Source: Thermoplasmata archaeon
GTDB taxonomy: Archaea; Thermoplasmatota; Thermoplasmata; Lutacidiplasmatales; UBA184
Length of the DNA: 64,000 nucleotides
Direction of reading: 5' to 3'
NCBI GenBank assembly: GCA_022750375.1
Contig: JAKIVU010000005.1
Span: 4,288 to 68,287, forward strand
Positions 12,234 through 64,000 of the stretch are shown piece after piece. The notes under the pieces are model-generated. The model was not told the origin of the DNA, searched no databases, and was given only the letters and a program-made list of their open reading frames with translations. How positions within the stretch are numbered: the first letter of the stretch is position 1; each line of letters opens with the position of its first letter. The position numbers and the translations under genes are program-made.

Positions 12234-12286
12234 GGGGAGCGTCGGACCAAGCAGCCGGCGCCCGGCCCCGGGCGCCGCGGACGCCG

Positions 12287-23561: not shown

Positions 23562-24614
23562 TCACCGACCCTGGGGGACGCCGATCCACTTCTGCAACCG
23601 GTGCAGGTTCGGAAGACTGCCGACGACGATGAGGGCGTCGCCCGGCTGGAAACGGAACGACGACGGAGGGTTGAGCACCGTCACGAACTCTCCGTCCGCC
23701 CCCGGACGGGCGTAGCCGATCACGAGACAGTCGGCCGCCGCCCGCACGAGGGCTTCCGCCTCCAGGAGGGGCTGCTTCGACACCGGCGTGCGCTCGGTGA
23801 GGATGAACTCCTCCATGTCCGCCCCGAACGCGGTGCTCGTCAGGTCCTCGACCATGTTGGCTACCTCCGGCCGGAACGCGGCATCCGCGCAGAGCCGCCC
23901 GCCCATGTCCGCGGGGGAGGCGACGTACGTCACGCCGGCGGCTTTCAGGGTCTGCTTGAGCTCCGGTCGGGCGACCGACACGACGATCCGTATGGTGGGG
24001 TTGACCGCCCGCACGTTCAGCGCGGCGACCAGGGTCGTCGTGTCGTCCCCCGTGCAGACGATCACCGAGTGCGCCCCCGCGACGTTCACGCGTTCCAGGA
24101 TCTCGGCTTCTCCGGCGTGACCGTAGGTGGCGAACAGTTGCTTTTCCGTAGCCAGGTTGTGCAACCCCCCGACCTCGTTCGCGTCGGCCGTCACGACCGC
24201 GACCTTCTCGTCCTGGGCCAGGAGCTCCCGGACCGCGGCCCGTCCGACGTCGGAGTAGCCGAGGACGACGATGTGCCCGGACATGTTCGTTCCGAGCGTC
24301 CCGAGCAGCCGATGCTGGGACTCTTCGCCGACCACGGAGATCACGACGGTGACGAGGTAGGCGCCGAGGAATACTTCAACCGCCGCGATGCCGATCGTGA
24401 ACAGCTTCGCGTTGGCATTGGTGGGGACGACGTCCCCGTATCCGATGGTCGAGAGCGTGATCATCGCCCAGTAGAACGAGTTGAGCAGGTCGGTTGTCCC
24501 GTGGTACGATTCGAGAACGTAGAAGCCGAGCGCCGCGGTCAGGAAGACCGCGACGTACGCGGCGAGAAATTTCCACAGGCGCCCGAAGAGGATAGTCGCG
24601 TAGCTCCGCCGCAT
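23562..24614 (-). CDS. potassium channel with RCK/TrkA-N domain (MthK-like)
   Basis: 350 aa. Selectivity filter TLSTIGYGD, followed by the Rossmann motif HIVVLGYSDVGR and an RCK C-terminal lobe. Confidence 0.9.
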   Translation of the reverse strand: MRRSYATILFGRLWKFLAAYVAVFLTAALGFYVLESYHGTTDLLNSFYWAMITLSTIGYGDVVPTNANAKLFTIGIAAVEVFLGAYLVTVVISVVGEESQHRLLGTLGTNMSGHIVVLGYSDVGRAAVRELLAQDEKVAVVTADANEVGGLHNLATEKQLFATYGHAGEAEILERVNVAGAHSVIVCTGDDTTTLVAALNVRAVNPTIRIVVSVARPELKQTLKAAGVTYVASPADMGGRLCADAAFRPEVANMVEDLTSTAFGADMEEFILTERTPVSKQPLLEAEALVRAAADCLVIGYARPGADGEFVTVLNPPSSFRFQPGDALIVVGSLPNLHRLQKWIGVPQGR

Positions 24615-24997
24615 CGAGACCGTCGGCGCGCCACCGGTGCGGGGTTTCTAATCCTTTCTCCCCGGACATCGACGCTCGCTGTCCGCTCCGTGACACCCGC
24701 AGGGCTCGGGATCGGTCGATGTGCACCGCCTCAAGCGCGAAAGCTTTGGTAACGATCCGGGCGGATGGGCCGCGGAACGGAAGCGATTGGATTGATCCGA
24801 GGACTTGCCGGTTCGTTCGTCTGCGCTTTACCTAGCCAGTTCTAGCGCCTTGTCGAAGACGGGATCGCGCCCGGAACTATAATCGTCGAAAGTCGGCTCG
24901 ACCTCGATCTCCGGCGTCAGCGAGATGCCAACCTTCGGTCCCCAAACGACATTCGCCCAAAAGTAACGGTCCAGGTCCGATCCTGCCTTGCTCCAGT

Positions 24998-25025
24998 CCG
25001 AGAACTATCGTCTGCACAGAAACTC
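24998..25025 (-). repeat. island-specific intergenic repeat module, copy 1 (AGTTTCTGTGCA + GTTCTCGG)
   Basis: The minus strand reads GAGTTTCTGTGCAGACGATAGTTCTCGG. The same two-part module occurs at 28493-28520 on the plus strand. Confidence 0.6.
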
Positions 25026-25134
25026 GCGGGGATGCGCACAAACCCCTGCCGCCGCACTGAAACCCGTGCCCTCCACAGGTGAGAGATGGGATGCGCTGTA
25101 GCCCACGTTGCGGCTACCCCAGCGGTGAACGGAG

Positions 25135-25548
25135 CTAAGCGAACTCACCCTTGGGCCGGAGGAACTTCACGACGTAACCGTCGGGGTCGTTGATAGTGAA
25201 CGCCTTCCCGTACGGCCAGTCGCGGAGGCCCGACTCGATCTTTACCTTGGCTTTCTTCGCTCGCGCGTAGACCTTCTCGACGCTTCGGAGCTCGACGTTG
25301 ACGATGACGCCGCCGCCCAGCGGACCCTTCACCCAATCGTGATAGTCACTGTAGCCGCCACCGGTGGCTCCCGCCTCCCAGATTCGGCCGAGCGCGATGA
25401 CCGCGCCCCCCATCCCGACACCCGCATAGTCCAGTTTGCCGTCGTCGCCATTCCAAGCCCATCGAGTGTCGAACCCGAGCGCCTGGTAGAACTTCACTGA
25501 GCGTTCGACGTTCTTGACGTTGAACATGACGCTGATCTCCGCCTTCAC
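25135..25548 (-). CDS. VOC/glyoxalase-family protein
   Basis: 137 aa. VKNVERSVKFYQALGF and TINDPDGYVVKF. Lower G+C than the core genes. Confidence 0.75.
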   Translation of the reverse strand: MKAEISVMFNVKNVERSVKFYQALGFDTRWAWNGDDGKLDYAGVGMGGAVIALGRIWEAGATGGGYSDYHDWVKGPLGGGVIVNVELRSVEKVYARAKKAKVKIESGLRDWPYGKAFTINDPDGYVVKFLRPKGEFA

Positions 25549-25605
25549 CTACTTTTCCTCCGACGCGGGTGCACTACCGAGAGCCCTGCACATTAAGTCC
25601 TACAT

Positions 25606-25635
25606 AGAAAATAGTTCTCGGTCAAAGCCGTCGGC
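25606..25635 (+). repeat. island-specific intergenic repeat module, copy 2 (AGAAAATAGTTCTCGGTCAAAGCC)
   Basis: Aligns with 26296-26320 (AGAAAATCGTTCTCGGGCACAGC). Lies about 70-95 nt upstream of the ATG at 25702. Confidence 0.5.
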
Positions 25636-25701
25636 ACTCGGGGCCGCTTCGGGGCCGTTCCCGGAACCCGGGCTTAAGTCGTCCCACCGGTTTCCCGGCA
25701 C

Positions 25702-26184
25702 ATGCCCGAACGGGGCCACCGGATCTACGGGACCGCCACGGTGCGTGTCTCCCTAGTGATTCACGCCCCGTCGCGCTACGTGTACGAGTGGTGCACGGAC
25801 TATCGGAGCGACGACGGACGATTCTCGAACGGCCGCGCGAGTTACCGTGTGATCAAAATTTCGCCCCGCCGCGTGGTCCGGATTCGCGTTTCCCGGGGTT
25901 CTGGTCGCGATCCCAGCATCGCGGTCGAGTTGATTGGTCTCAATCCCCCCCACTCCTGGCACCTTGACCAGATCGACCAGACCGACCAGCAGTCCTTGGA
26001 CTACCGGGTCAGCGCCGTCGGCCGCGCGCGGACGCGACTTCAGCTGTTGAGCACCGAACGCTGGGTCACCCCGGAATTCCCGACCCGTGAAGCACTCCGC
26101 GCGCAGATCGCGAAGACGTGGGCCATGTTCGCCGTGGCACTCGAGGCGGACTATCGCGCCGGACGTCCCGCCCGGGGCAGGTGA
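25702..26184 (+). CDS. SRPBCC (START/polyketide-cyclase-like) superfamily protein
   Basis: 160 aa. VIHAPSRYVYEWCTDYR at the N-terminus and a long C-terminal helix, which is the typical SRPBCC layout. Confidence 0.6.
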   Translation: MPERGHRIYGTATVRVSLVIHAPSRYVYEWCTDYRSDDGRFSNGRASYRVIKISPRRVVRIRVSRGSGRDPSIAVELIGLNPPHSWHLDQIDQTDQQSLDYRVSAVGRARTRLQLLSTERWVTPEFPTREALRAQIAKTWAMFAVALEADYRAGRPARGR

Positions 26185-26270
26185 ACAGTCGTCGACGGAA
26201 CGACCGCGCGTCGTCCGAGTTCTACTCACCTCTCCGCGATCCCCACCGGCGTTCCCCATCGACGCCTCCC

Positions 26271-26392
26271 TGCGCAGAAACTAGCACCCCTTCACAGAAA
26301 ATCGTTCTCGGGCACAGCTTTGCGCTCCGGCTTTGCACCGCAACTAGTTTCTGTGCAGGGGCTTCCGTGCAGGGTCCGTAGTTCCTGTGCAG
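26271..26392 (+). repeat. cluster of island-specific repeat units, including an inverted pair TGCGCAGAAACTAG / CTAGTTTCTGTGCA
   Basis: TGCGCAGAAACTAG at 26271-26284. AGAAAATCGTTCTCGGGCACAGCTTTGCGCTCCGG at 26296-26330. CTAGTTTCTGTGCAG at 26344-26358. Further ..CCGTGCAG and GTTCCTGTGCAG units run to 26392. Confidence 0.6.
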
Positions 26393-26665
26393 CGGTGGGT
26401 GGCACCGAGCGCCTAAGCCCGGAAGTGTCGTTCAAAATCCGATCGGTCGCTAATCAATCTCTCGGAGCGCGCCGGTTGTTTCGTCTATGACTCCGAAATG
26501 ATTCGAGTGCAGCCTTGCGTCTCGCGCAGTCTATCCGTCGTGGCCAGTCACAGGCAGAGTCGCGCTTAACAACGGCCACCGTCTCAATGACTGACTCCGT
26601 CCGCGGCGTAACTGGCGTGGAGGATGGAGTGATATTCCAGTGGGCCATGTCTTTGACGGTGTGCA

Positions 26666-27785
26666 ATGGTCACGGGGCCATCCGGCCTCTTCGCTAAACT
26701 GTATTTGGCCGGGAATCCGCGACCAGTCTTAGCAGTGATTACAATTGTTGTTCTCGTGTTTGGCGCGATCGTCGGCGGTGTGAAACGTGCCGCAGCGTCC
26801 ACCGCCTTGCCTGCAGGTTGCTCACCGGACGCCGTTTCAGCGGCAGGGTACAACCTCTCCTCGACCGTTAACACGACCCAAGTCCTGAACGAGGCACTAT
26901 CTGCCGGCAGCCTTGTCGCGGAGACCAGCGGATTCCCTTCCCCTCAAAATCTCTCGTACGGCAGCACCTTTGAAATTTGGAACTTCACAGCACCAGTCTG
27001 CGTACCAATAATCCAGACTACCAACGCGGTCTTCTCGGGCCAAGTTGACGGCCAACCGTTTAATCTGGTAGTCTCTGAGAACCCCACGTCCACGGCGATC
27101 GAAAGTGTTTCCCTGCAGTCCGCGGGACTCTCAGACCCGAGTCACACTCCGAGCCTTTACGCAGGTTACGGTGTCAAGTCTACGAATAGCCCATCCGGTA
27201 AATGGACAGTTTCTACTGTGACCCTTCCCTCGGGCGGTTGTTTCAACTATTGCGACATTGACCCGTGGATCGGCCAGTCTCCCAACGCCAGCGGAACCGC
27301 CGGGATTTCCCAAACGGGAACCGAATCCGAAATTGAAGTCGTAACTGGGTGTTGTACTATCTATTCATATTATGCGTGGTACGAGTTTTGGCCTGGAACG
27401 GCTACAACCTGTTTCTCCGGGCGATGCGATCAAGGCAGAGTCAGGATATTCTGGTACGACGTACACTACAACCTTGCTCGACGTTTCATCGAACACGGGC
27501 TGCACCGCGAGCGACTCAGCAGGGTTCATTCCGAGTCCTGACGATGCGATCTTCGTGGAGGAGGAGCAGTATAGTTCCGCTTGCGGTTGCTATTTGGGCA
27601 CCCCGGTTTTCACGACATTTGACTTCGACGACCTGGTCGTCGGTGCCACTGGTGATCTAAACTCGTTGAGGCCAGCCCCCTTCCAATACAACACCGCAGG
27701 TAACGTTGGGATCGGCCCTTTAACTTACGATAATCACACGTGCGTAGTCCATGTCGACAGTTGCTTTGACGAGTACTACACGTAG
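26666..27785 (+). pseudogene. glutamic peptidase G1 (peptidase A4/eqolisin family) interrupted by a +1 frameshift near 27401-27411
   Basis: ORF 26666-27541 carries a signal anchor, DPWIGQS...ISQTG and YYAWYEFWPG. The family pattern continues in ORF 27372-27785 as VSPGDAIKAES...LLDVSSNTG...DAIFVEEEQ...TFDFDDL. The two frames join if one nucleotide is skipped after ACA ACC (27404-27409). Confidence 0.65.
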
Positions 27786-27800
27786 GAGCGGTGTGAGTAC

Positions 27801-28358
27801 ATGGATACCGTCAACGTTCGAGGGACGATGCGCATCGGCCCGCCGCCGATGCCGACAATATTCGCGTTTATCGGTCTCGTGATGATCTGCCTCGCTGTTG
27901 TTCTAACCCTTGTCACGCCGTGGGCCATCCAAGCGTCAAACCTACCACTCGGGAGCTTCGAACCGATCGTTCTGGCCCCGCTTGGCAGCTTGATGGCCGG
28001 GTCGCTACTACTTGCGCTCGGAGCCAGTGCCTACATCCGATCCCTTCGGCACCAGGCGACCGACTCAGCTGGTCCGGTGGGGTCGTTTCGCCAGCGGCGG
28101 CGCGATATCGCGCTCAAATCGACTATCTTCGGAGTGGTCCTTGGAGGCGGACTCATACTGCTCGGCTACCAGATCGTCTCCCCAGCGACCTGTGTTGCGC
28201 TCACTCATGGGCCTTACGCTTGCATGATTCCGAGTGCGGTTGCCGAGTTGTCTCTCGTGCTCATGTCGGGGGGTGTCGTGGCGCTGGGCTTGGGTATAGT
28301 GATTGGCGCCTTACTCGCGAGACCACAAATTAAAATGCGATCGAGGACTTCTTCATAG
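27801..28358 (+). CDS. membrane protein, unknown function
   Basis: 185 aa, ATG start, four TM helices, lower G+C. Confidence 0.55.
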   Translation: MDTVNVRGTMRIGPPPMPTIFAFIGLVMICLAVVLTLVTPWAIQASNLPLGSFEPIVLAPLGSLMAGSLLLALGASAYIRSLRHQATDSAGPVGSFRQRRRDIALKSTIFGVVLGGGLILLGYQIVSPATCVALTHGPYACMIPSAVAELSLVLMSGGVVALGLGIVIGALLARPQIKMRSRTSS

Positions 28359-28474
28359 CACGGCCGCGACCCCGACTGAAGACCAATCAATCACTGGACC
28401 GCGATGGTGCTTCCCTAGTTATGGTGGGGCCGTTGGGTAATGAAGCGGCGCTCGGCGGATGCGACCCCAAATAG

Positions 28475-28540
28475 GGTTCCTGTGCGGCCCAGCTAGTTTC
28501 TGTGCACCGAAGTGTTTTCGGGCAAAGCCTTGCGCTCCGC
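28475..28540 (+). repeat. island-specific repeat units (GGGTTCCTGTGCGG, CTAGTTTCTGTGCA, GTTTTCGGGCAAAGCCTTGCGCTCCGC) ending in an 8-bp perfect hairpin
   Basis: Same units as at 26271-26392 but in a different order. GCCTTGCG-CTC-CGCAAGGC (28526-28544) is a perfect inverted repeat. Confidence 0.6.
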
Positions 28541-28546
28541 AAGGCG

Positions 28547-28552
28547 TAAATA
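28547..28552 (+). promoter_or_regulatory. TATA box for rpoK
   Basis: GTAAATAC: the TAAATA core lies 27-32 nt upstream of the ATG at 28579. Confidence 0.45.
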
Positions 28553-28578
28553 CGGTGCCTTGAGTGGGCGACCCCTTG

Positions 28579-28836
28579 ATGGCCGCATCGACTCCCGCGG
28601 CCTCGGGGAGTGTTATCGTGCCCGAGCATCCGGTGCCGGCCCCCCTCGAGTCCAGCGATTTCACTCGGTTCGAACGGGCGCGCATCCTCGGGGCGCGCGC
28701 ACTCCAGCTGTCGTTGGGGGCTCCGATCCTTATCGACGTCCTCGCCACGCTGGTCGACCCGGTCGAGATCGCCGAGGCGGAGTTCGCGGCCGGGCGCATC
28801 CCGATCACGGTCCGCCGAGGCCCGCGCTCCAGTTAG
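28579..28836 (+). CDS. rpoK: DNA-directed RNA polymerase subunit K (Rpo6/omega-like)
   Basis: [21 protein letters not shown] is the conserved Rpo6 core. The ATG at 28579 is preferred over the GTG at 28564 used by the track. Confidence 0.85.
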
Positions 28837-29627
28837 ACTCCGGCGTCGTCCAGCGCGTGAGCGCATCGACAGGTCGGCGGCCGCACCAGTCGCGGCATCA
28901 GTTCCGTCAATATCCGTCGCATGCGCTCGGCGTTTCGGTGCATCACCTCGACGATCTCCTTCGCCTCCACCGGTCGGTCCGCCCAGACGTCGTAGTCCGT
29001 GACCATGGCGAGGCAGGCGTAGCAGATCGCGCGTTCGCGCGCGAGCGTGACCTCGGGGACGAGCGTCATTCCGATCACGTCCGCGAACGTCCGGAAGAAC
29101 GCCGACTCGGCCCGCGTGCTGAACCGGGGCCCTTCCACGCAGACGTACGTCTTCCCCTCCGCGAACGGCGCGCCGATATCCCGGCCGACGCCCGCCGCGG
29201 TGGCGGTAAGGTCCGGACAGAACGGGTCGGCGAGCGAGACGTGATAGACGCGGCCCCCGTCGAAGAACGTCGTCGGTCGCTGTCGGGTGAGGTCGACGAA
29301 CTGCTGCGGGAGCACGAAGGTCCCCGGCGCCAACTCCTCCTTGAGCGACCCGACCGAGCTCACGGTCACGATCGCATCCGCACCGAGCGACCGGAGCGCG
29401 TCCACGTTCGCACGGTAGTTGATCCGATGCGGAGGGATGGAGTGGCCCGGCCCGTGTCGAGCGAGGAACAGTACCCGCACGCCGCGGACGTCCCCTTCTT
29501 CCACGAGGCCGGACGGAGCGCCCCACGGAGTCGACACCCGGTGGGATTTGACCGCGCCCTCTCCGAAGATGCTCGAGATCCCGGAACCGCCGATCACGCC
29601 GATCGCGCGCCGCGCCGGGGCGCTCAC
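28833..29627 (-). CDS. mtnP: S-methyl-5'-thioadenosine phosphorylase
   Basis: 264 aa. [25 protein letters not shown] and VGMTLVPE blocks of the MTAP/PNP family. Confidence 0.85.
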
Positions 29628-34179: not shown

Positions 34180-34302
34180 GGCTGACAGCTTTCCGCGTCT
34201 CCCGTAGGCTCGCGCACTTCAGTACTGCGCGGAACGCCAGCGGGCTTAACTGCCGGGTTCGGAATGGGACCGGGTGTTTCCCCGCCGCTTTGGCCGTCAG
34301 CC
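34180..34302 (-). rRNA. 5S ribosomal RNA (not linked to 16S/23S in this window)
   Basis: The minus strand reads GGCUGACGGCCAAAGCGGCGGGGAAACACCCGGUCCCAUUCCGAACCCGGCAGUUAAGCCCGCUGGCGUUCCGCGCAGUACUGAAGUGCGCGAGCCUACGGGAGACGCGGAAAGCUGUCAGCC. Helix I closes (GGCUGACGG/CUGUCAGCC). The CCGAAC, GUACU and GCGAGCC blocks match archaeal 5S. Confidence 0.9.
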
Positions 34303-42946: not shown

Positions 42947-43053
42947 CCCGGCTTAGCTCAGTGGTAGAGCGGGGGACTGTAGGCGAGACTGCCGGAGCTC
43001 CGGCGGCCCCCGTGGAGATCCTCAGGTCGCCTGTTCGAGTCAGGCAGCCGGGA
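42947..43053 (+). tRNA. tRNA-Tyr (GUA) with a 35-nt intron at the canonical 37/38 position (intron 42983-43017)
   Basis: Exons fold into a cloverleaf. Acceptor CCCGGCU/AGCCGGG with the archaeal Tyr C1-G72 pair, D-arm GCUC-AGUGGUA-GAGC, anticodon stem GGGGA/UCCUC with CU-GUA-G, T-arm GCCUG-UUCGAGU-CAGGC, discriminator A. Confidence 0.85.
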
Positions 43054-43962: not shown

Positions 43963-44034
43963 TGCGGTTGTCGGGATTCGAACCCGAGTAGGTAGCTTGG
44001 GAAGCTACCGTCCTAACCACTAGACCACAACCGC
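43963..44034 (-). tRNA. tRNA-Gly (CCC)
   Basis: The minus strand folds as acceptor GCGGUUG/CAACCGC, D-arm GUCU-AGUGGUUA-GGAC, anticodon stem GUAGC/GCUAC with loop UUCCCAA, T-arm UCGGG-UUCGAAU-CCCGA, discriminator A. Confidence 0.9.
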
Positions 44035-56079: not shown

Positions 56080-56799
56080 ATGGCCGACAAGGAAGGCCCG
56101 GCGAAGAAGCCGGCGATGGCCCGGACCGTCAAGGACAAGTGGCGGTCGAAGCACTGGTTCAAGGTCCGCGCCCCCGGTCTCTTCCAGCACGTGGAGCTCG
56201 GCGAGACGGTCGCGACCGAACCCGAGCAGGTGATCGGCCGCACGCTCGAGACCACGCTTCCTGAACTGTCGGGCGGCGGAGATTCCGGGAAAGCCCACAT
56301 CAAGCTGCGGTTCCGCATCGAGCGCCTCGGCGGCGATGGGGTCGCCGAAGCCCGGTTCATCGGCCACGAGCTGACCTCCGACTACGTCCGCCGGCTCGCG
56401 CGCCGGAAGCGTTCCAAGATCGATCTGTCCCTCACCGTGACCACGAAGGACGGGGTCCAGATCATCCTGAAGCCGGTGGCGGTCGGCGAGCAACGACTCC
56501 AGACCCGGCTCCGCGCCGAACTACGCCACAAGATGGTGTCGATCCTCCTCGAGGAGGCCGCGAAGCGGTCGTCTCCCGAGTTCGTCCGGGAGATGCTCCA
56601 GGGGGAGCTCTCGAAAGTCCTCGCCCATGGGCTGAAGACACTCTATCCGCTGAAGAAGATCGAGATCCGGCGGTCGGAAGTGCTCGGCACGATCGCGGAC
56701 GAGCTCCCGTTGCCCGAACCGACCGCCCTTCCCGAGGTGCCGACGGCCCCCGACGCGGTGGCCCCGGTCGCCGACGGCGGGGACGCCACGGTAGCGTAG
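56080..56799 (+). CDS. rps3ae: 30S ribosomal protein S3Ae (eS1)
   Basis: 239 aa. VKDKWRSKHWFKVRAP, GRTLETTL and SDYVRRLARRKRSKID blocks. Confidence 0.9.
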   Translation: MADKEGPAKKPAMARTVKDKWRSKHWFKVRAPGLFQHVELGETVATEPEQVIGRTLETTLPELSGGGDSGKAHIKLRFRIERLGGDGVAEARFIGHELTSDYVRRLARRKRSKIDLSLTVTTKDGVQIILKPVAVGEQRLQTRLRAELRHKMVSILLEEAAKRSSPEFVREMLQGELSKVLAHGLKTLYPLKKIEIRRSEVLGTIADELPLPEPTALPEVPTAPDAVAPVADGGDATVA

Positions 56800-56833: not shown

Positions 56834-56935
56834 GTCGGAGTGGCTCAGCCCGGTAGAGCACGGGACTCATAGCGGGACGCGCTACGCGTCCCGGGAGAGA
56901 TCCTGGGGTCGGGGGTTCAAATCCCCCCTCCGACA
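56834..56935 (+). tRNA. tRNA(CAU), elongator Met or Ile2, with a 28-nt intron at 37/38 (intron 56872-56899)
   Basis: Acceptor GUCGGAG/CUCCGAC, D-arm GCUC-AGCCCGGUA-GAGC, anticodon stem CGGGA/UCCUG with CU-CAU-A, T-arm GGGGG-UUCAAAU-CCCCC, discriminator A. The intron contains the hairpin GGGACGCG-CUA-CGCGUCCC. Confidence 0.85.
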
Positions 56936-57116
56936 TCTTTCGACGATTTCTCGCTGAGTTACGACGACACTTGAATATTCGCGCGTGGCGGATTTGAACA
57001 TTTCAGCCGCACGTCCTCCGCCCTCTCGACTTTGAGGTGGTCTCTGCCCCAGTTCGGGAGGATACGCATATGGACCACGGGAGTGATTTCCAGGAGCGGG
57101 CTCGCCCGGTTCAGGA

Positions 57117-57470
57117 TCAGCGGTCGTCGAATCCGTACTTGTGGAGTTGCTCGGGTATTGGCAGGTCCGAAGGCTGGTTGAAATCGATCCCTGTGATCTC
57201 TTTCATCTGTTGCTTGAACCAGAGATCGAACGGGTCGGTTGACAACGCCCACGCTCGGAAGGACTTGGGAATGTCCGGGGCCTCTGCATAGTAGACCATC
57301 AGGACCCCATTCGGTGTGGTGAGCAGGAACTGAGTGTCCTTCTCGAACCCGAACCGCTTGGAGGAGGCGTCGTACTCTGCATATCTCGGGCCGGCGAGCT
57401 GGTTAAGGAGGGTTCTCAGCGCCTCCCTCTTACCGGGGAGCACAGGAAAAACCGTCGCGTACTGGGCCAC
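57117..57470 (-). CDS. small conserved protein of unknown function, paralog 1
   Basis: 117 aa, GTG start. More than half identical by eye to 57607-57966 (FPVLPGKREALR.LL..LAGPRYAEYDA...DPFDLWFK.Q.K.ITGID.NQPS). Confidence 0.7.
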   Translation of the reverse strand: MAQYATVFPVLPGKREALRTLLNQLAGPRYAEYDASSKRFGFEKDTQFLLTTPNGVLMVYYAEAPDIPKSFRAWALSTDPFDLWFKQQMKEITGIDFNQPSDLPIPEQLHKYGFDDR

Positions 57471-57606
57471 ACCGATGTTCAGAGACCGAGCGTAGTTAAA
57501 CGTTCCGAGAATCGGTGGCGACAGCGGTTCTCTCAGTGCCCGGAGAGGGCTTTTCGGGTTCCCACGAAAGTGATGCGGGACCCTCGGGAAGGGTCGCCCT
57601 GTTGGA

Positions 57607-57966
57607 TCATCGATCGTCGAAGCGGTACTTGTGGATCTGCTCGGGCCATGGCCCTTCGAAATTCGAGGGTTGGTTGTAATCGATCCCCGTGATGTCCTTC
57701 AACTGTTCCTTGAACCAAAGGTCGAACGGGTCGTTGCACGTCGCCCAGTCTCTCCAAGCCTTCGGAATGTCCGCGCCTTCCCCATAGTAGATGATGAGGA
57801 CCCCCTGCGGGGTGGTTTGCAAGAACCAGGTGTCCCGTTCGAATCCCCATCGCCGCGAGGCCGCATCGTACTCGGCGTATCTTGGGCCGGCCAGAGCCTT
57901 TAGCAGGTTCCGCAGCGCCTCCCTCTTGCCGGGAAGCACCGGGAATACCATCGCCCATTGGGGCAT
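57607..57966 (-). CDS. small conserved protein of unknown function, paralog 2
   Basis: 119 aa, ATG start. Tandem duplicate of 57117-57470, including its upstream TATA region. Confidence 0.7.
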   Translation of the reverse strand: MPQWAMVFPVLPGKREALRNLLKALAGPRYAEYDAASRRWGFERDTWFLQTTPQGVLIIYYGEGADIPKAWRDWATCNDPFDLWFKEQLKDITGIDYNQPSNFEGPWPEQIHKYRFDDR

Positions 57967-58087
57967 ATCGAGGTTCAGGAGGGTGCGTTAGTTAAGAGTT
58001 CCGAGATTCCGGGGCAGTTTCGACCGGCGCTCCGCCGGATTTCCGACCTACCGATCGACTTCGAGGTTTCCCGGTTGGTGGCGACAC

Positions 58088-61000
58088 TCACGCCGGCGGC
58101 CGCGCCTTCCGGGCTCGCACGCGTTCGATGTCCCGGCCGGCCCGGAGTTGGGTGAACAGTTCCAGGGCCTCGTCGAACGCACGGCCGGCGCTCCTCGAAT
58201 CCTTTGACTGTTCGTAGGCTACGCCGAGCGTGTACAAGGTCAGGGCCAGCTCGTACGGCCACCCGGCCTGTTTCCACCAGGTCACCGCCTCTTCGAGCGC
58301 GCGGATCGCATCCTGTGTCTGTCCTCGATGGGTCTCCCACGCGGCCCTAGCCCGCAGGGCAAGGCCTCGATTCGCCGGCACCGGGATTCGATCCGCGATC
58401 CGGTCCAGTCGTTCACGGAAGAGGGACGCGCGACGCTCGGCCTCCGCGCGGTCCGGAAGACTCAGGGAGACGGTGACGGCACGAGCGAGTGGCAGTGCCC
58501 AGAGCGTCGCTAGGATAGCGGGATATCCCCTCCGGTCGCAACGGACGATGCCGGACTCGAGGGCTGCCAAAGCGCCGGTGGGGTCTCCTCGCTCTTCTTG
58601 GAGCCACCCGTCCAAATAGCTCTCGTAGACGGCCTGCGCGGTGTCGGGACCCATCCGGAGCAACGTCCTCGTCGAGTCGAGCAGGGCCGCGGCCTGGTCC
58701 AGATTTCCCGCCATCAGCTCGAGATGGGCCCGGACCTCGGAGTTTAGAACGTTCGGGATCCCAACCTCCTGGTGAAATTGCGCTCCCGCTCGGGCACCGG
58801 CGGCCGCGCGGTCGACCTCCCCGGTCAACAACAAAACAATCGGCAACTGGGTCCCCTCGAATCCCATCTCGCTTCCGCGATCTCGAATTCGTTGGCACCA
58901 TCGAATTCCCTCGTTTATCGTACCGATCCCACCGACGGTATCGCCGTCCATCCACACCATTCCCCAAACATACTGCCATAGAACCGAGGGACCATCCACC
59001 AGGTTCTGCCGGCGCGCCAGCTCCAAGGCCGCGATGAGATTGCGGCGAGCTGTCTCCCGGCCTTCGGGGGGTTCGAGCCAAGCCAAGTCAACGAGCGCCT
59101 TCGCCTCAAGGTCGGATGCATGGGTGGCGCGCGCGACCGAAAGTGCTTGCTCTAGGAGCGCCCGCGCCGAGGGAAGTTGAGGGAGCTCCATTTCTGCGGC
59201 CACAGCCCCGAGGTGAAGGCAAAGGTCCGCATGCAACCGGCTCTCAGGCTCGCTTTCGACGAGCGCCCGGGCCTGGAGCATGAGGGCAAGGCCCTCCTCG
59301 AACGACCGTAACATCCATGCACGAATGGTGCCCGCCGCGAGCAGATTCGACCCGGCCGAGATGCGCTCGCCGAGCTCTTCGTACAGTCGAGCGGCCTCTT
59401 CCAGTCGGCTCGCGGCCGAGGAAAATTGCGCTAGAAACGGTGCTTCGTGACCCAGTGACTCCAGCAGGCGGGCGCGTTCCAGATTTTGCTCACGGGAGCG
59501 GCCCCGGCCCGACCCTTGGAGCTCGTTCATCAATTCGAGAGCGGTCTCATAGTATCGGATTGCCTCCTCGTGGGCGAAGACCGCAGCAGCTTGGTGCCCC
59601 GCGATGGCCGAGTACTGGAGAGCTTTCGGACGATCGTTTCCCCGACAGAAATGTTCACTGAGTTGGGCGGCGATCGCGTCCGGGTTACCGGCGTGCTTCT
59701 CCTCCAGTAGTCGGGCGACCTTCAGATGAAGCCGCTGGCGACGGGCGAGCGAAAACTCCCGGTAAAGGACCGCGTGGGTTTCGTCGTCGGCGAACCGGTA
59801 CATCGGGTGGCCCGGTTCATACTCCCTCTCCCGGAGCAGTCGGGCTCGAAGAAGTTCCTCGACGGAACGGATCAGCGACTCCTCCTCCATTCCGCTCAGG
59901 TGGAGGAGGAGGTCGAAGTCGATTTCCCCCCGGAGGACCGAGGCGGTGGAGAGAACGGCACGGGATTCCTCGCTAACCCGGCCGACCCGACGCAAAATGA
60001 GCTCCCGCATCGACGAAGGGATCCCGACGTCCGTGGTGAGCTGCACGGTCCAACCTTCGGGGCGGCGAACCAGTTGCTGTTCCTCGACCATGGACCTTAG
60101 GAGCTCCTCGGCGAACAGCGGATTCCCCCCGGTTCGCTCATGGACGATGCCCACTAGGCCTGGGAGCGGGGCCTCTCCGCTGAGAATCGCGGAGACGAGG
60201 CGTTGGGACGGCTCCGCGGACATCCGTTTGACCGGAACGTCCTGGAGCAGGTGTTCCTTTCTCAGTTCGGAAAGCATGGCACGAAGATGATCACTTTCCG
60301 TGACGTCAGAATCGCGATGGCTGAGAATCAACAGCAGACGAAGGGACGGTACCTGTCGCGCCAGGTACTCGATCAATCGGAGCGAGGCGGCGTCGGCCCA
60401 CTGGATATCGTCAAGGAGGAAGAGCAACGGACCTTCCTGGGAAAGGTTCCGGACAAACTGCGTAACACCCTCAAAAAACGCCAGCCGGGCCTGTTCGGCT
60501 TCGAGCGCCGCCGGTGAGGGACTCGGGCCCACGCGGTCGACCAGCTCCGGGACCAGCTTCACCACCGCAGCCTGACACTTGGTGCACAGCTTGTACAGCA
60601 ATGGGTCGGGCGCGTCCCGGACAAAACCCCGGATCGCTTCGGCCCACGGACCGTACGGGATGTCGACCTGGTCTTGAATTCCCCGCCCGTGGAGGGTGCG
60701 GAACCCCTTGGCGCTCCCGCGTCGAATTGTCTCTTCGGCGAGGCGCGTCTTCCCGATCCCGGGCTCCCCGGAGAGTGCGATCACTTGGCCACGGCCAGCG
60801 GCAGCTTCTTTGAGGGCTCCGTTTAGGGTCTCTACCTCCGCCTCGCGGTCCGTCCAAGGAGTGATCCGGGCGGCGGAGGGTCCGTGCCAGGGAAGGTCGA
60901 CGCTGTAGACGGAAATCGGGGTGTCGATGTTCTTCAGGAATGCGTGCTCGAGCTGGATGCACGAGTAGGGCACTTTGTTCCGAACCTGGTCGAACACGGG

Positions 61001-61402
61001 ACCGCTGATACAAATCCCCGAGGTCTCCGCGAGGGGCTCGATGCGCGCAGCGATGTTCACCGCATCTCCGAGGAGGTCGCCCGCTTGGTCGACGACGTCG
61101 CCGAGGTGGATCCCGATCCGCAGCTCCACTCGATCGGATGCGGAACGCTCGTTGTGTCCGAGGAGCGTGCGCTGCACGTCGATTGCGCATTCTAGGGCCT
61201 GTAGCGCACTGGGGAATTCAACGAGGAACCCGTCACCCATTCGGTTGACCTCTCGGCCACCATGAGACTGGAAGACCGGACGCACGAGCGCCCGCTGGAC
61301 TCCCAGAAGATGGATGGCCAGGGGCTCGTCCCGCTGGGCGAGAGCCGAGTAGCCCACCATATCCGTGAACATGATGGCGGCGAGACGACGGGTCGGAGCC
61401 AC
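58088..61402 (-). CDS. class III adenylate/guanylate cyclase domain - STAND/AAA ATPase - TPR repeat protein
   Basis: 1104 aa. N-terminal cyclase core (AAIMFTDMVGYSAL...MGDGFLVEF...IGIHLGDV...GDAVNIAARIE). P-loop LSGEPGIGKTRLAEE and Walker B LFLLDDIQWAD. C-terminal about 550 aa of TPR-like helical repeats. Confidence 0.85.
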   Translation of the reverse strand: MAPTRRLAAIMFTDMVGYSALAQRDEPLAIHLLGVQRALVRPVFQSHGGREVNRMGDGFLVEFPSALQALECAIDVQRTLLGHNERSASDRVELRIGIHLGDVVDQAGDLLGDAVNIAARIEPLAETSGICISGPVFDQVRNKVPYSCIQLEHAFLKNIDTPISVYSVDLPWHGPSAARITPWTDREAEVETLNGALKEAAAGRGQVIALSGEPGIGKTRLAEETIRRGSAKGFRTLHGRGIQDQVDIPYGPWAEAIRGFVRDAPDPLLYKLCTKCQAAVVKLVPELVDRVGPSPSPAALEAEQARLAFFEGVTQFVRNLSQEGPLLFLLDDIQWADAASLRLIEYLARQVPSLRLLLILSHRDSDVTESDHLRAMLSELRKEHLLQDVPVKRMSAEPSQRLVSAILSGEAPLPGLVGIVHERTGGNPLFAEELLRSMVEEQQLVRRPEGWTVQLTTDVGIPSSMRELILRRVGRVSEESRAVLSTASVLRGEIDFDLLLHLSGMEEESLIRSVEELLRARLLREREYEPGHPMYRFADDETHAVLYREFSLARRQRLHLKVARLLEEKHAGNPDAIAAQLSEHFCRGNDRPKALQYSAIAGHQAAAVFAHEEAIRYYETALELMNELQGSGRGRSREQNLERARLLESLGHEAPFLAQFSSAASRLEEAARLYEELGERISAGSNLLAAGTIRAWMLRSFEEGLALMLQARALVESEPESRLHADLCLHLGAVAAEMELPQLPSARALLEQALSVARATHASDLEAKALVDLAWLEPPEGRETARRNLIAALELARRQNLVDGPSVLWQYVWGMVWMDGDTVGGIGTINEGIRWCQRIRDRGSEMGFEGTQLPIVLLLTGEVDRAAAGARAGAQFHQEVGIPNVLNSEVRAHLELMAGNLDQAAALLDSTRTLLRMGPDTAQAVYESYLDGWLQEERGDPTGALAALESGIVRCDRRGYPAILATLWALPLARAVTVSLSLPDRAEAERRASLFRERLDRIADRIPVPANRGLALRARAAWETHRGQTQDAIRALEEAVTWWKQAGWPYELALTLYTLGVAYEQSKDSRSAGRAFDEALELFTQLRAGRDIERVRARKARPPA

Positions 61403-61574
61403 GGCTCGAAATCCGCTCCCGTTAGATTAAGTCCCGGTCCTGAAACAGGTGTGAGTCAACTCAGTGGGCAAAGCTCACCTCGCGCCCAGTAAGCCCAACC
61501 GTATCTGGTAGTCTTGCGATCGCGATTTCTTGATGTCGTGTAGTCCCGTATTCGCGCTTTCTTGCGGACCCCAT

Positions 61575-61635
61575 GTCGGGGACATGAAGAATTCAGTAGT
61601 GTCCCCCTCCGACACCCTTAGTCGATTCCGGGAAG
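61575..61635 (+). repeat. tRNA(CAU) 3'-half-like structured repeat, copy A
   Basis: GTCGGGGACA-TGAAGAATTCAGTAG-TGTCCCCCTCCGACA followed by CCCTTAGTCGATTCC. Shares the hairpin and CCTCCGACA core with copies B and C and with the tRNA 3' end. Confidence 0.75.
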
Positions 61636-61682
61636 AGCTATGGTGTGCCGGACTTTCGTCTCTCCCGAGCGGTGCTTCCCCC

Positions 61683-62231
61683 ATGAACGAACACCCCGGC
61701 ACCGAACCGAGGATAGTCATCCGTCGAATTGTGGAATCGGATAGGAATGCGTTACGAGAATTGCGCCTTCGGGCCCTAACTACGGACCCAATGTCCTTTG
61801 CATCCACGTTCGACCGGGAATCCAGAGACGACGGCGCGAAATGGACCGATTGGGCGCACCGTGGAGCTGTTTCCCCCGAAATGGCGGTCCTCGTGGCCGA
61901 GCAGATCAACGGCCCGCTGATCGGGATGGTGGGCGCGTTGTCGGAGGAAGATGTCACTCACATCTACGGGATGTGGGTCGAGCCAGGCCACCGGAACCTC
62001 GGCCTGGGAGGGAAACTACTCGACGCGATTCTCGCATGGGTGGAAACGTCTCACCCATCGTCCGAAGTTCGTCTGGGAGTTGTACCTTCCTCCGATTCAG
62101 CGGTGCGCCTTTACCGCAGCCGGGGGTTCGTTCCGAGCGGGAAGGTCGAACCCCTTCCGCACACCCCAGGAGTGGTGTGGCATGAGATGGCCCTACTACG
62201 CAAGGGATCGAATCCGTCGTCAGAAGGGTGA
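61683..62231 (+). CDS. GNAT family N-acetyltransferase
   Basis: The ATG at 61683 gives a 182-aa protein. IRRIVESDRNALRELRL and the acetyl-CoA motif VEPGHRNLGLGGKLLDA. The upstream part of the track ORF merely reads through repeat A. Confidence 0.8.
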   Translation: MNEHPGTEPRIVIRRIVESDRNALRELRLRALTTDPMSFASTFDRESRDDGAKWTDWAHRGAVSPEMAVLVAEQINGPLIGMVGALSEEDVTHIYGMWVEPGHRNLGLGGKLLDAILAWVETSHPSSEVRLGVVPSSDSAVRLYRSRGFVPSGKVEPLPHTPGVVWHEMALLRKGSNPSSEG

Positions 62232-62313
62232 TGCTCGTCCGTCCGTTTGATCGAAGCTCGATCAAGGACCAGGACTTCCCGTCGGCCGGGTGCCTGCGCT
62301 GGTCGACCGGAAC

Positions 62314-62394
62314 GTACGGGAACTGAAGAATTCAGTAGTGTCCCCCCCGACATCTCTCACCGATTTATCGCCGGGAGTCGACGAAGTTCGACCA
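62314..62394 (+). repeat. tRNA(CAU) 3'-half-like structured repeat, copy B
   Basis: GTACGGGAAC-TGAAGAATTCAGTAG-TGTCCCCCCCGACATCTCTCACCGATTTATCGCCGGGAGTCGACGAAGTTCGACCA. 42 of 48 positions identical to copy C from CCGACA onward (hand alignment). Confidence 0.75.
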
Positions 62395-62531
62395 ACATGA
62401 TGGCGGCAAGTCCGCGGGCGGAGGTCCCGCCTCGAGAATGGTCTTTCTTGGATTGAGCCCGGGTCACTGGAGGCGCCGGATTCGACTGAGGGGGCCTTTC
62501 CTGGAGATGATGGGCGGCTAAGGGACCAGGG

Positions 62532-62789
62532 TTACCGGCCGTAGATTCGCGACCGGTGATCCACGCGTTCGACCAGAATGGTCTGTTCTGCGTGGGAGAG
62601 CACGGCCAGGAGGCGATAGCTGCCGATACGAAGCTTGAACTCGTCCGAGCTCGCCAATCTCGTGAAATAGTGGGTCGGGGCCAAGGCGGCTGCCTCGAGA
62701 CGAGTTACAACCCTTCGGGCTACCGTTCGATCGAGTTTGTGCAGATCGCGAACAGCGGTGTCCGACCACTGGATCGACCACGCCGTCAG
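62532..62789 (-). CDS. relE: RelE/ParE-family type II toxin (no canonical start codon; CTG overlapping the antitoxin stop proposed)
   Basis: Hand translation of a frame not listed in the track: (L)TAWSIQWSDTAVRDLHKLDRTVARRVVTRLEAAALAPTHYFTRLASSDEFKLRIGSYRLLAVLSHAEQTILVERVDHRSRIYGR, with TAA at 62532-62534. This is the classic RelE pattern (KLRIGSYRLL...V.HRS.IY). Confidence 0.7.
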   Translation of the reverse strand: MTAWSIQWSDTAVRDLHKLDRTVARRVVTRLEAAALAPTHYFTRLASSDEFKLRIGSYRLLAVLSHAEQTILVERVDHRSRIYGR

Positions 62790-63022
62790 AGGCCCAACCG
62801 CTTCTTGACCTGCTCGTGCGCCGTTACCCGGCCCGACCGGATGTCCAGTCTGGCGTTCAGCAACCCCATCCGAAACGCATCGCTGTATGTTCCTTCATCG
62901 TCTCCCTGCGGGACTAGGGCCAGCAGCTTGTTCAGGAGCTCATCGTAGGTCTCGCGCGGCGAGCTTTTCAATGCGGCCAGCCGCTCGCGGGTGGTCGGTG
63001 TAACTTGGATAGTCGTGATCAT
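62786..63022 (-). CDS. antitoxin partner of the RelE-like toxin (small N-terminal DNA-binding-type domain)
   Basis: 78-80 aa (ATG 63022 or TTG 63028). MITTIQVTPTTRERLAALK..., located immediately upstream of and overlapping the toxin frame. Confidence 0.65.
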   Translation of the reverse strand: MITTIQVTPTTRERLAALKSSPRETYDELLNKLLALVPQGDDEGTYSDAFRMGLLNARLDIRSGRVTAHEQVKKRLGL

Positions 63023-63048
63023 TGGCAATGGGATAGCGTATGGTCACC

Positions 63049-63056
63049 ATATAGAT
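63049..63056 (-). promoter_or_regulatory. TATA-like box for the toxin-antitoxin operon
   Basis: Minus-strand ATCTATAT lies 27-34 nt upstream of the ATG at 63022. It is embedded in the partial palindrome CATATAG-ATTA-CTATG. Confidence 0.4.
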
Positions 63057-63118
63057 TACTATGTTGGAATCGGGGAAAGGGTCGGGGCCGGAAAAACCGA
63101 CGGGACGAAATCCTTCCG

Positions 63119-63200
63119 GTCGGGGATATGAAGAATTCAGTAGTGTCCCCCTCCGACATCTTTCGCCGATTTATCGCCGAAAAACGACGAAGTTCGACCA
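63119..63200 (+). repeat. tRNA(CAU) 3'-half-like structured repeat, copy C
   Basis: ATCCTTCCGGTCGGGGATA-TGAAGAATTCAGTAG-TGTCCCCCTCCGACATCTTTCGCCGATTTATCGCCGAAAAACGACGAAGTTCGACCA. 38 of 50 positions identical to the tRNA 3' end plus flank (56929-56978) by hand alignment. Confidence 0.8.
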
Positions 63201-63332
63201 TTTGTCTGGAGGGGATCTGAACCCGTCAACGGTCGTTCCAGAAAGGGCTAGTTGATCGACCGTAGGGGGTGCGTCCTAGGTCGGGTGCCGCCCTGAGGCG
63301 GGGATTCGGGAACCTCCGCCCCCCTTCAGGGT

Positions 63333-63857
63333 TCAACCCTTGTTCTTCGCAGCCCATTCCTTGGCTGCATTAGCATCCCATTCCGGGGCGGCCTGTCGCG
63401 TGGTAACGTTGATCCTATTGTAGAGATTCTGAATGGCGATCCCGAGCACGAGGAACGCTAGCTCCCGTTCCTGGAAGTGACGCGCCGCCTCATCCCAGAC
63501 AGTGTCAGGCACGGGGTCCGAACGGTCGCTTAAGCGCGTTTCCGCCTCTGCGAGGGCGAGAGCCGCACGTTCCGGGGCCGTGAATTGTGGCGATTCCCTC
63601 CACGCCGAGACGGCGAGGAGCCGCTCGTCGGTCTCCCCAAGCTGTTTCAGTTGCCAACAACTGGCAGCGAGGCAGTTCGCGCAACCATTCAGCTGACTGG
63701 CCCGGAGCATGGCCAAAGCGAGCGCCCGCGCGGGCGAGCCTTTCAGCTGGCTCAGTAGCTGCCCGAGTCCCTGCAACGGGGCCATGGCCTCAGGAATGAT
63801 CATCGCGGGGTTCTTCAGTCGGCTTTTGGGCGTCACTGTGGACACTGCCATTTCCAT
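63333..63857 (-). CDS. carboxymuconolactone decarboxylase (AhpD-like) family protein
   Basis: Start at MEMAVSTV (ATG 63857). LRASQLNGCANCLAASC (CxxC) and SAWRESPQFTAPERAALALAEA are typical of the CMD/AhpD family. Confidence 0.75.
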   Translation of the reverse strand: MEMAVSTVTPKSRLKNPAMIIPEAMAPLQGLGQLLSQLKGSPARALALAMLRASQLNGCANCLAASCWQLKQLGETDERLLAVSAWRESPQFTAPERAALALAEAETRLSDRSDPVPDTVWDEAARHFQERELAFLVLGIAIQNLYNRINVTTRQAAPEWDANAAKEWAAKNKG

Positions 63858-64000
63858 TTGCTCGCTGCGCGATCGCTCGCGCGCGTCACTGCATAACTCT
63901 TTTGATATATACGTTACTGCTCTCAATCGTGGATATGACTCAAAGAGTCTTTCAGCCGATAGCACGTTGATTTCCGGTGAGTACGCGAGGCGGGGGATGC

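Follow-up and report, generated by a model that had tools for sequence, protein, structure and literature searches.

The tRNA(CAU) locus

The 64-kb stretch of Thermoplasmata DNA analyzed here (contig JAKIVU010000005.1; its whole 64,000 nucleotides [nt] are called the window) carries toward its right end an intron-containing tRNA(CAU) gene, behind which three copies of a short repeat divide the chromosome into small groups of genes, here called cassettes. The gene for ribosomal protein S3Ae (56080-56799; Pfam, 181.7 bits) ends 35 nt upstream of the tRNA gene and, together with a PrkA-like AAA gene (Pfam), forms its upstream neighborhood. Direct reading of the sequence gave the anticodon CAU and then a 28-nt intron after position 37, and because of this intron the gene was not called by ARAGORN in its default mode; it was recognized by the Rfam tRNA model, in agreement with the original prediction, which had been made from the sequence alone. 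Past 57000, the G+C content was 0.58 to 0.65 versus about 0.66 to 0.73 over most of the window (about 0.69 before the tRNA), a lowering that had likewise been anticipated. The features of the locus are listed below, with module lengths measured from one CCGACA to the next.

56834-56935, plus strand: intron-containing tRNA(CAU) gene (Rfam tRNA model, 57 bits, E=1.1e-9)
56924-56935, plus strand: last 12 nt of the tRNA(CAU) gene, CCCCCTCCGACA, the common recombination core
56936-56999, plus strand: left arm of cassette 1, consisting of a flank of about 55 nt, termed F (hairpin TTTCTCG..), and the 10-bp motif L, GGATTTGAAC, at 56990-56999; homologous flanks stand behind the tRNA and many sites in relatives
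56936-61614, plus strand: cassette 1, 4679 nt, with two tandem paralogs, a cyclase-AAA_16(STAND)-TPR gene, and site A (Pfam, repeat search)
57114-57470 and 57604-57966, minus strand: the two tandem paralogs of cassette 1 (tandem duplication found as a repeat)
58088-61402, minus strand: cyclase-AAA_16(STAND)-TPR gene (Pfam)
61575-61614, plus strand: site A, GTCGGGGACATGAAG-AATTCAGTAGTGT-CCCCCTCCGACA, an L-like motif, a variable spacer, and the 12-nt core (nhmmer, E=5e-8)
61615-62352, plus strand: cassette 2, 738 nt, with a GNAT acetyltransferase gene and site B, and without an F arm (Pfam)
61683 (ATG) to 62231, plus strand: GNAT acetyltransferase gene (Pfam Acetyltransf_1, 52.9 bits)
62314-62352, plus strand: site B, GTACGGGAAC..., the most degenerate copy, with a 1-nt deletion in the core (nhmmer, E=1.7e-5)
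62353-63158, plus strand: cassette 3, 806 nt, with a truncated F arm, a cyclase fragment, toxin and antitoxin genes, and site C (repeats, Pfam)
62353-62394, plus strand: truncated F arm of cassette 3 (repeat search)
62532 to about 62789, minus strand: ParE/RelE-fold toxin gene (Pfam, 43 bits)
62786-63022, minus strand: DUF7557 antitoxin gene (Pfam)
63119-63158, plus strand: site C (nhmmer, E=1e-9)
63159-64000, plus strand: cassette 4, open at the window end, at least 842 nt, with an F arm, an L motif, and a CMD-family gene (repeat search, Pfam)
63213-63222, plus strand: L motif of cassette 4, GGATCTGAAC (motif position)
63333-63857 or 63965, minus strand: CMD-family gene (Pfam CMD, 47 bits)

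A repeat search of the window returned one three-copy, same-strand family, starting at 61575, 62314, and 63119. The 22-mer TGAAGAATTCAGTAGTGTCCCC occurred exactly three times in the 64 kb, always on the plus strand, compared with an expectation of 0.00 from shuffled sequences. When aligned, each copy read GTCGGGGAYA-TGAAGAATTCAGTAG-TGTCCCCCTCCGACA, with the 15-nt TGAAGAATTCAGTAG standing in all three where the tRNA has TTCAAAT and with CCCCCTCCGACA following it. In tRNA terms, the repeat corresponds to the T-stem plus the 3' acceptor-stem strand, the 15-nt insert replacing the T-loop, just as first proposed; the final 12 nt of tRNA(CAU) are the chromosomal attachment site. The prediction of three direct copies of an 80-nt element held for their number and orientation; the conserved site itself spans only about 40 nt (61575-61614, 62314-62352, and 63119-63158) and ends at CCGACA. 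The search also linked the tRNA 3' end and its flank (56924-56999) to copies B and C, with 70 to 87% identity over 53 nt and 74% over 76 nt.

The gene content given by Pfam agreed with that read from the open reading frames (ORFs) at the outset, namely, the paralogs, the cyclase-STAND-TPR protein, the GNAT, the RelE-type toxin-antitoxin pair, and the CMD protein. The paralogs of cassette 1 encode products of 117 and 119 amino acids (aa), one of which had a weak DUF6176 match, and their duplication has a period of about 496 nt and 75 to 82% identity. Cassette 3 also contains, immediately next to the truncated F arm that follows site B, a 42-nt stretch (62394-62435) that matches the cyclase gene at its 5' end (61368-61409) with 74% identity and seems to be what is left of another cyclase cassette lost by deletion. 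The toxin frame (62532-62813, minus strand) has no ATG, GTG, or TTG before its last 50 codons and runs across the stop codon of the antitoxin gene; its start codon is noncanonical, or else the gene is in decay. Exact-protein look-ups made for extension of the contig returned no more than a 1.4-kb JGI contig for the antitoxin and a 3-kb NCBI contig for S3Ae, both from the same population, and no record for the CMD protein.

The site family in related genomes

Relatives of the locus were collected by an S3Ae protein search with one genome per GTDB species, which gave 80 loci (labeled L0nn) with S3Ae identities to the window of 71 to 92%. All are metagenome-assembled genomes, mostly from soil and peat, and 78 of the 80 are named Thermoplasmata (one of them Candidatus Lutacidiplasmatales). 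The tRNA(CAU) gene lay behind S3Ae in every locus of sufficient length, and this linkage held in nearly all of the 80. An exact-pattern scan of metagenome contigs yielded five loci, of which L004, L006, and L007 are relatives with about 77 to 80% nucleotide identity over the S3Ae region; each has a repeat copy about 2.2 to 2.4 kb past S3Ae-tRNA(CAU) whose 40-nt core is identical to that of copy C. The 40 nt of site C also recur unchanged in L048 and L062. Identity of this core between species whose coding DNA is only about 77 to 82% identical bore out the prediction that the copies share a common ancestor and are not independently decayed tRNA copies. On a 426-kb metagenome contig, the exact 22-mer was found in a single stretch, adjoining that contig's tRNA(CAU).

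Pattern searches retained 62 sites in 36 loci once the tRNA itself and dubious matches had been dropped. A nhmmer profile built on 51 aligned sites was then searched across 81 loci, comprising 686 kb upstream and 463 kb downstream of the tRNA. All 53 matches with E<1e-3 were on the plus strand and downstream of tRNA(CAU); at E<=1, there were 69 matches downstream, including those 53, and none in the 686 kb upstream. One to four sites were present in 33 of the 51 loci having at least 3 kb of downstream sequence. The repeat is short, multicopy, and tRNA derived, as would be expected of a miniature inverted-repeat transposable element (MITE) or a short interspersed nuclear element (SINE) scattered through the genome, a generic alternative that the original prediction had allowed for. 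Such elements are dispersed in both orientations, whereas the three copies in the window all lay at the tRNA(CAU) locus, significant copies in the 81 loci were confined to one side of the tRNA and one strand (0 upstream versus 69 downstream), and no terminal inverted repeats or target-site duplications were found around a discrete unit. A MITE- or SINE-like origin is barely credible.

The site consensus was nGGGGATTYGAAC, followed by about 14 variable nt opening with a conserved TTC and then by CCCCC(T/C)CCGACA. Motif L, GGATTTGAAC, is GTTCAAATCC, a segment of the tRNA T-loop, in reverse complement. A second form of the site, in which a longer palindromic spacer, GGATTTGAACCCCCGGGGGGTTCGAATA, precedes the core, was found in L014, L016, L023, L026, L031, L034, L055, and L072. 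The single polymorphic core position tracks the host tRNA: T was present in 39 of 42 sites of CCTCCGACA hosts, and C was present in 20 of 20 sites of CCCCCGACA hosts. These results support the repeats being one conserved family of recombination sites. In L014, two identical whole tRNA(CAU) genes, intron included (1792-1893 and 4203-4304), lie 2.4 kb apart with a three- to four-gene module between them, so that the "site" there is an entire tRNA gene and not a modified 3' half.

The sites might alternatively act as RNA, as a functional tRNA-like molecule or processing signal such as a split-tRNA 3' half, a minihelix, or a punctuation element. They derive from a tRNA 3' half and are very highly conserved; copy C aligns with the tRNA from the 3' strand of the anticodon stem, which ATCCTTCCG, just upstream of site C, resembles; copy A folds into a 15-bp interrupted hairpin (z=-3.2); and one compensatory pair was seen, GGATT/AATCC in L061 versus GCATT/AATGC in L065. 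Against this, the mean folding z-score over 51 sites was -0.8, paired cells made up 66.6% versus 65.4% in shuffles, no Rfam tRNA match was obtained at the sites even at E<=10, and neither a matching 5' half nor a leader was found. An RNA function would also leave unexplained the restriction to one locus and the reshuffling breakpoints that fall exactly at the sites (see below), and we consider it very improbable. The narrower identification as a split-tRNA 3' half or a tRNA pseudogene was rejected on the missing Rfam match (E<=10), the 15-nt insert in place of the T-loop, and the lack of a 5' half. An attC-like hairpin was tried separately, through folding of the 51 sites, pair counts with shuffled and slid controls, and single folds, and received weak support: the positive signs were limited to an inner 4-bp YGAA/TTCR stem and to the one compensatory pair, which belongs to a cassette that is 98% identical between L061 and L065.

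Cassette boundaries, exchange, and cargo

A total of 62 closed modules were delimited, ranging from 648 to 6008 nt; 21 were no longer than 880 nt, and 46 of the 62 held one or two ORFs. Cassette genes faced both ways, with 67 on the plus strand and 53 on the minus strand. In an all-against-all blastn comparison, the same module was found at differing array positions in different species, with homology opening at the first base after CCGACA and closing at the next CCGACA. For example, L070:867-1520 matched L071:0-648 over its full length, the latter standing directly behind the genuine tRNA; L053:0-711 matched L069:3604-4314 with 88% identity; and L026:0-698 was found again in L062, L050, L031, L070, L087, L064, and L065. 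A cyclase-TPR cassette was second in L026, L045, and L036, behind a different first cassette in each. Gene order thus differed among relatives, and the situation that the original prediction had set against itself, the same genes in the same order without the repeats, was not encountered.

Four pairs of loci shared cassettes that were more alike than their surroundings. In L061 and L065, a cassette was 98% identical over 1281 nt between flanks of 74 to 80% identity, in third versus first position and with unlike neighbors on both sides. The corresponding values for cassette and flanks were 88% and 76% in L026/L045, 88% and 83% in L053/L069, and 85% and 74 to 82% in L074/L085. Such an excess of cassette over flank identity marks discrete units that move between species, recently in the case of the 98% pair. 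The toxin-antitoxin cassette of the window was also found, at other array positions, in L011 (82 to 83% nucleotide identity) and in L053 and L069 (70 to 72%), and the same gene pair was inverted within modules of L014, L016, and L023. Downstream of the tRNA in L060, there was a homologue of the GNAT gene with 74% nucleotide identity.

Each site forms the 3' end of the left-hand cassette and travels with it. Identity in the variable region of the site was 72.5% for site pairs with common upstream cargo, 53.7% for pairs with only downstream cargo in common, and 51.6% for pairs with neither, and it is this tracking of upstream cargo that assigns the site to the left-hand cassette, in keeping with a crossover within the core. 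Within a locus, site identity was 0.705. On the other side of the core, the F arm of about 55 nt, followed by a second L motif, stood behind the tRNA and behind many sites in relatives. F copies within one genome diverged strongly, and the F preceding the 98%-identical L061/L065 cassette was conserved with that cassette; because F moves with the cargo to its right, F-L forms the left arm of a cassette. The 45 to 65 nt common to B, C, and the tRNA after CCGACA is accordingly the left end of the next cassette, which accounts for the alignment of B and C about 45 nt into the tRNA flank: the homology that had been predicted there exists and lies outside the repeat. Some cassettes have no F arm, such as a DUF7557/ParE pair that opens with CCATAGAAGTCATTAATGC.

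In a circularized cassette, the elements of the attachment region would stand in the order L, spacer, core, F, and L, with the core between two direct L motifs, an arrangement that would recall attP arm sites. The L motif ending the F arm is followed, about 10 to 16 nt on, by a core-like CCCCTCCGRAA or CCTCCGCCC at L003 (about 2214), L004 (about 2515-2550), L007 (about 4845-4880), and window positions 56990-57030. F itself may be a tiny ancient cassette with a degenerate site of its own.

The cargo was diverse, with 86 Pfam families among 114 cargo ORFs, including cyclases, toxin-antitoxin pairs, GNAT proteins, hydrolases, and others. Adenylate/guanylate-cyclase-TPR proteins, with or without an AAA_16 STAND domain, were the commonest cargo (9 of the 114 ORFs) and were noted in L004, L007, L026, L033, L036, L045, L046, L048, L069, and the window; seven of the nine had weak PADLOC matches to a Pycsar cyclase, and in L004 three cyclase cassettes stood in succession. 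Cyclase cassettes with the same kind of terminal site as in the window were found in L004, L007, L046, L048, and others. Five proteins that recur in the arrays, c20, c10, c22, c13, and c24, were considered as recombinases and rejected; they are a hydrolase-cyclase, an ABC ATPase, an alcohol dehydrogenase, an RibD_C protein, and a NIPSNAP-like protein, respectively. The genes to the right of the arrays varied by clade (DUF885/peptidase M3, PKD-Kelch, thermopsin, and heme biosynthesis), so that no unambiguous empty locus could be named.

Integrases, mechanism, and known systems

No recombinase was found in the 64-kb window by phmmer with four tyrosine-recombinase seeds or by tblastn with a related integrase, as had been predicted. 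With the same phmmer seeds (XerD, IntI1, Cre, and lambda Int), a search of every ORF of 120 aa or more from all loci returned one protein, an integrase of 437 aa in L051 (10889-12202; PF00589, 53 bits) with a C-terminal zinc ribbon. Its gene begins 44 nt past the end of tRNA(CAU). Homologous N-terminal parts occupied the same place in L041 and L043, up to the contig ends; a fragment stood behind a cassette site in L083; and tyrosine integrase homologues also lay beside tRNA(CAU) in L091-L096. A matching integrase family thus stands at the same tRNA in relatives. Directly behind the L051 integrase stop, at 12203-12275, is a remnant resembling the tRNA 3' half with the T-loop deleted, ATCCTGGTCAGGGGTCCCCCACATCGACA, and the gene by itself looks like a 1.4-kb cassette.

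A protein database yielded 85 homologues of the L051 integrase, nearly all from Thermoplasmata genomes or soil metagenomes. The closest, P0003, P0007, and P0008 (74 to 80% identity), had the order S3Ae, tRNA(CAU), integrase, and cargo, the cargo including DarT, SMODS, and a HerA/TrwB-like ATPase with a PD-(D/E)XK nuclease. More distant members (about 70% identity) stood directly 3' of tRNA-Gly(CCC), tRNA-Leu(CAG), and tRNA-Cys(GCA). At integrase loci of all tRNA types, a gap of about 10 nt separated the tRNA end from GTTCATATCC, an inverted L motif, behind which the integrase gene began. Among IMG/VR viral contigs, neither an integrase homologue nor a match to the general site pattern was found. 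The nearest solved structures were XerA of Pyrococcus abyssi and Thermoplasma acidophilum, and the score against IntI1 was marginal (E=1.4e-4). The family shares the PF00589 domain and tRNA 3'-end targets with archaeal tyrosine integrases of the XerA-like, pNOB8 ("nonsuicidal"), and SSV types and is set apart from them by the additional C-terminal zinc ribbon. In SSV-type elements, attP lies within the integrase ORF, so that the N-terminal and C-terminal parts of the gene are separated upon integration. Such a "suicidal" split integrase was considered because the frame is open through the tRNA in L051 and was rejected: the gene is intact, the conserved N termini begin 44 to 64 nt past the tRNA, and the longer homologues are extended C-terminally.

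Taken together, the region behind tRNA(CAU) is probably an array of small mobile cassettes that accumulated as site-specific recombination recurred at the tRNA 3' end and were likely mobilized in trans. A cassette comprises one or a few cargo genes, in some cases preceded by a left arm (F plus GGATWTGAAC), and a 3' site of about 40 nt made up of GGGGATWTGAAS (motif L, the T-loop complement), about 14 variable nt, and a 12-nt core identical to the end of the resident tRNA. With cargo genes in either orientation, each would presumably have its own promoter. The crossover should lie in or just after the core, where it would keep the tRNA intact and place the newest cassette next to it; as the tRNA is always intact, a crossover 5' of the core is not expected. 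The cassettes carry no recombinase, and the likely catalyst, acting in trans, would be the Thermoplasmata-specific tyrosine integrase family with the C-terminal zinc ribbon, which inserts beside the 3' ends of tRNA genes and has the same 10-bp motif next to its own gene.

The sites could instead be fossils, that is, inert scars of several full-size plasmids or viruses that decayed and lost their own integrases. Tandem integration at archaeal tRNA genes and integrase loss are both documented (PMC8371274, PMC6563490), and integrase-bearing elements of at least 8 kb stand at tRNA(CAU) in relatives. Several observations favor this origin and also count against mobile cassettes: most arrays, like the window, are without an integrase; the degenerate site B and the adjoining cyclase gene fragment attest decay and deletion within the array; and the toxin-antitoxin cassettes of the window and L011 are no closer (81.6%) than their flanks (82.4%), which fits vertical inheritance. 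The mobile cassettes are further weakened by other points. No circular cassette or excision junction was seen in the sequences compared, and the integrase elements at tRNA(CAU) had no clear canonical far-end site within 5 to 10 kb of available sequence, the candidates being weak L-motif matches in L091 and L096 only. The link between integrase and cassettes is suggestive only, consisting of shared position, shared target, and a 10-bp motif that is also plain T-loop sequence, and some misassembly may be present in relatives that are all metagenome assembled.

Random deletion, however, would not time and again leave single-gene units of 650 to 800 nt whose two ends coincide exactly across many species. 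Nor would inert scars be expected to keep an identical 40-nt site between species with about 80% identical coding DNA, to include a 98%-identical integrase-less cassette in backgrounds of 74 to 80%, or to have site variants that move with the upstream cargo. A fossil origin is unlikely, though far from negligible, and the present three copies in the window may themselves be in a fossil state.

The array of mobile cassettes can be set beside two kinds of known system. Cis-mobilizable elements of streptococcal integrative and conjugative elements accrete in tRNA islands and have no integrase of their own. Tandem tRNA-gene islands with a tyrosine recombinase have been described as the tycheposons of Prochlorococcus (10.1101/2020.12.28.424599), and tandem integrated elements and "gene capture" have been described at archaeal tRNA genes (PMC6563490, PMC8371274). 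As in such islands, integration would take place at a tRNA 3' end and regenerate the tRNA, older material would be pushed outward, modules are parted by partial tRNA copies, and there is a tyrosine integrase that some modules lack. An intact tRNA stands at one end, and its 12-nt 3' terminus closes every site, always in the orientation of the tRNA; an integrase inside the element was found in L051, L041, L043, and L091-L096 and was absent from the window and most arrays. In contrast to tandem islands, the units here are mostly of one or two genes and 0.65 to 2.6 kb, without integration or replication genes; they carry a dedicated site of about 40 nt (motif L plus a variable spacer for the T-loop) and not a plain partial tRNA copy; and identical cassettes recur intact at differing array positions in many species. 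The host lineage, soil Thermoplasmata, and the zinc-ribbon integrase family also differ. The resemblance to tycheposons, which are marked by a common set of recombinase and replication genes, is architectural only.

The other comparison is with integrons, which have been reported in archaeal metagenome-assembled genomes and whose attC sites are imperfect palindromes of 57 to 141 nt with R''/L'' and L'/R' boxes (GTTRRRY), read as folded single strands. Like sedentary chromosomal integrons, the arrays have one fixed entry point, ordered small cassettes, mostly of one or two ORFs, with their own site at each 3' end, diverse cargo including toxin-antitoxin pairs, sites alike within a genome (as the within-locus value above indicates), and cassettes common to several species. 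A true integron with IntI, attI, and attC, its integrase lying beyond 64000, would show these features. It would not have sites of about 40 nt that fold weakly and have neither the R''/L''-L'/R' layout nor GTTRRRY, genes in both directions with no common Pc-type promoter logic, or an entry site that is a tRNA 3' end beside S3Ae, with no integrase gene upstream, in place of attI beside intI. The sole recombinase family detected resembles XerA, has a zinc ribbon, matches IntI1 only marginally, and, where present, lies downstream of the entry site in cassette-like fashion. A true integron has hardly any claim to the locus. Of the three options in the original prediction, serial tRNA-targeted integration and an att/attC-like platform with the integrase elsewhere are supported together by the comparative data; the third was something not yet described.

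The best reading is serial integration of integrase-less cassettes, integron-like in function and a variant of tandem tRNA-island accretion, and not a true integron. No paper on this Thermoplasmata system was found in the literature; what sets it apart are the minimal one- or two-gene units, the dedicated conserved site, and the demonstrable exchange among many species. A bolder proposal, that soil Thermoplasmata hold an independently evolved archaeal analogue of the integron, is possible but somewhat short of an even prospect. It would have the tRNA(CAU) 3' end as the entry site, T-arm-derived cassette sites of about 40 nt that are maybe partly folded, a dedicated zinc-ribbon integrase that captures, excises, and reorders cassettes in trans, and a cassette pool shared between species.

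Textbooks present integrons as the means by which single genes are gathered into ordered, exchangeable arrays, and tandem tRNA-gene islands are usually viewed as piles of decaying large elements. The locus falls between the two, with tRNA-anchored entry, minimal integrase-less cassettes, and exchange among dozens of uncultured archaeal species from soil and peat. If the cassettes are moved in trans, gene capture of the integron kind would have evolved at least twice, from different parts; toxin-antitoxin, cyclase-STAND, and small-enzyme genes would have a concrete route of flow in a poorly known archaeal lineage; and an integrase and its site of about 40 bp would make a compact pair available for testing as an archaeal genetic tool.

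Three further observations concern other parts of the window. The tRNA-Gly(CCC) gene at 43963-44034 (minus strand), whose orthologue in L088 (one contig with L074) has a member of this integrase family directly at its 3' end, is unoccupied in the window and faces a convergent intron-containing tRNA gene (42947-43053, plus strand) about 0.9 kb away. A stand-alone 5S rRNA gene was identified at 34180-34301 (minus strand; Rfam, 103 bits), with no Rfam match to a large- or small-subunit rRNA in the 64 kb. Finally, a second stretch of low G+C content, at 24000-29000 (0.55 to 0.64 versus about 0.69 elsewhere), does not lie beside a tRNA gene; its ORFs had no Pfam match except for a weak Peptidase_A4 match at 26666-27541, and it may be another island.

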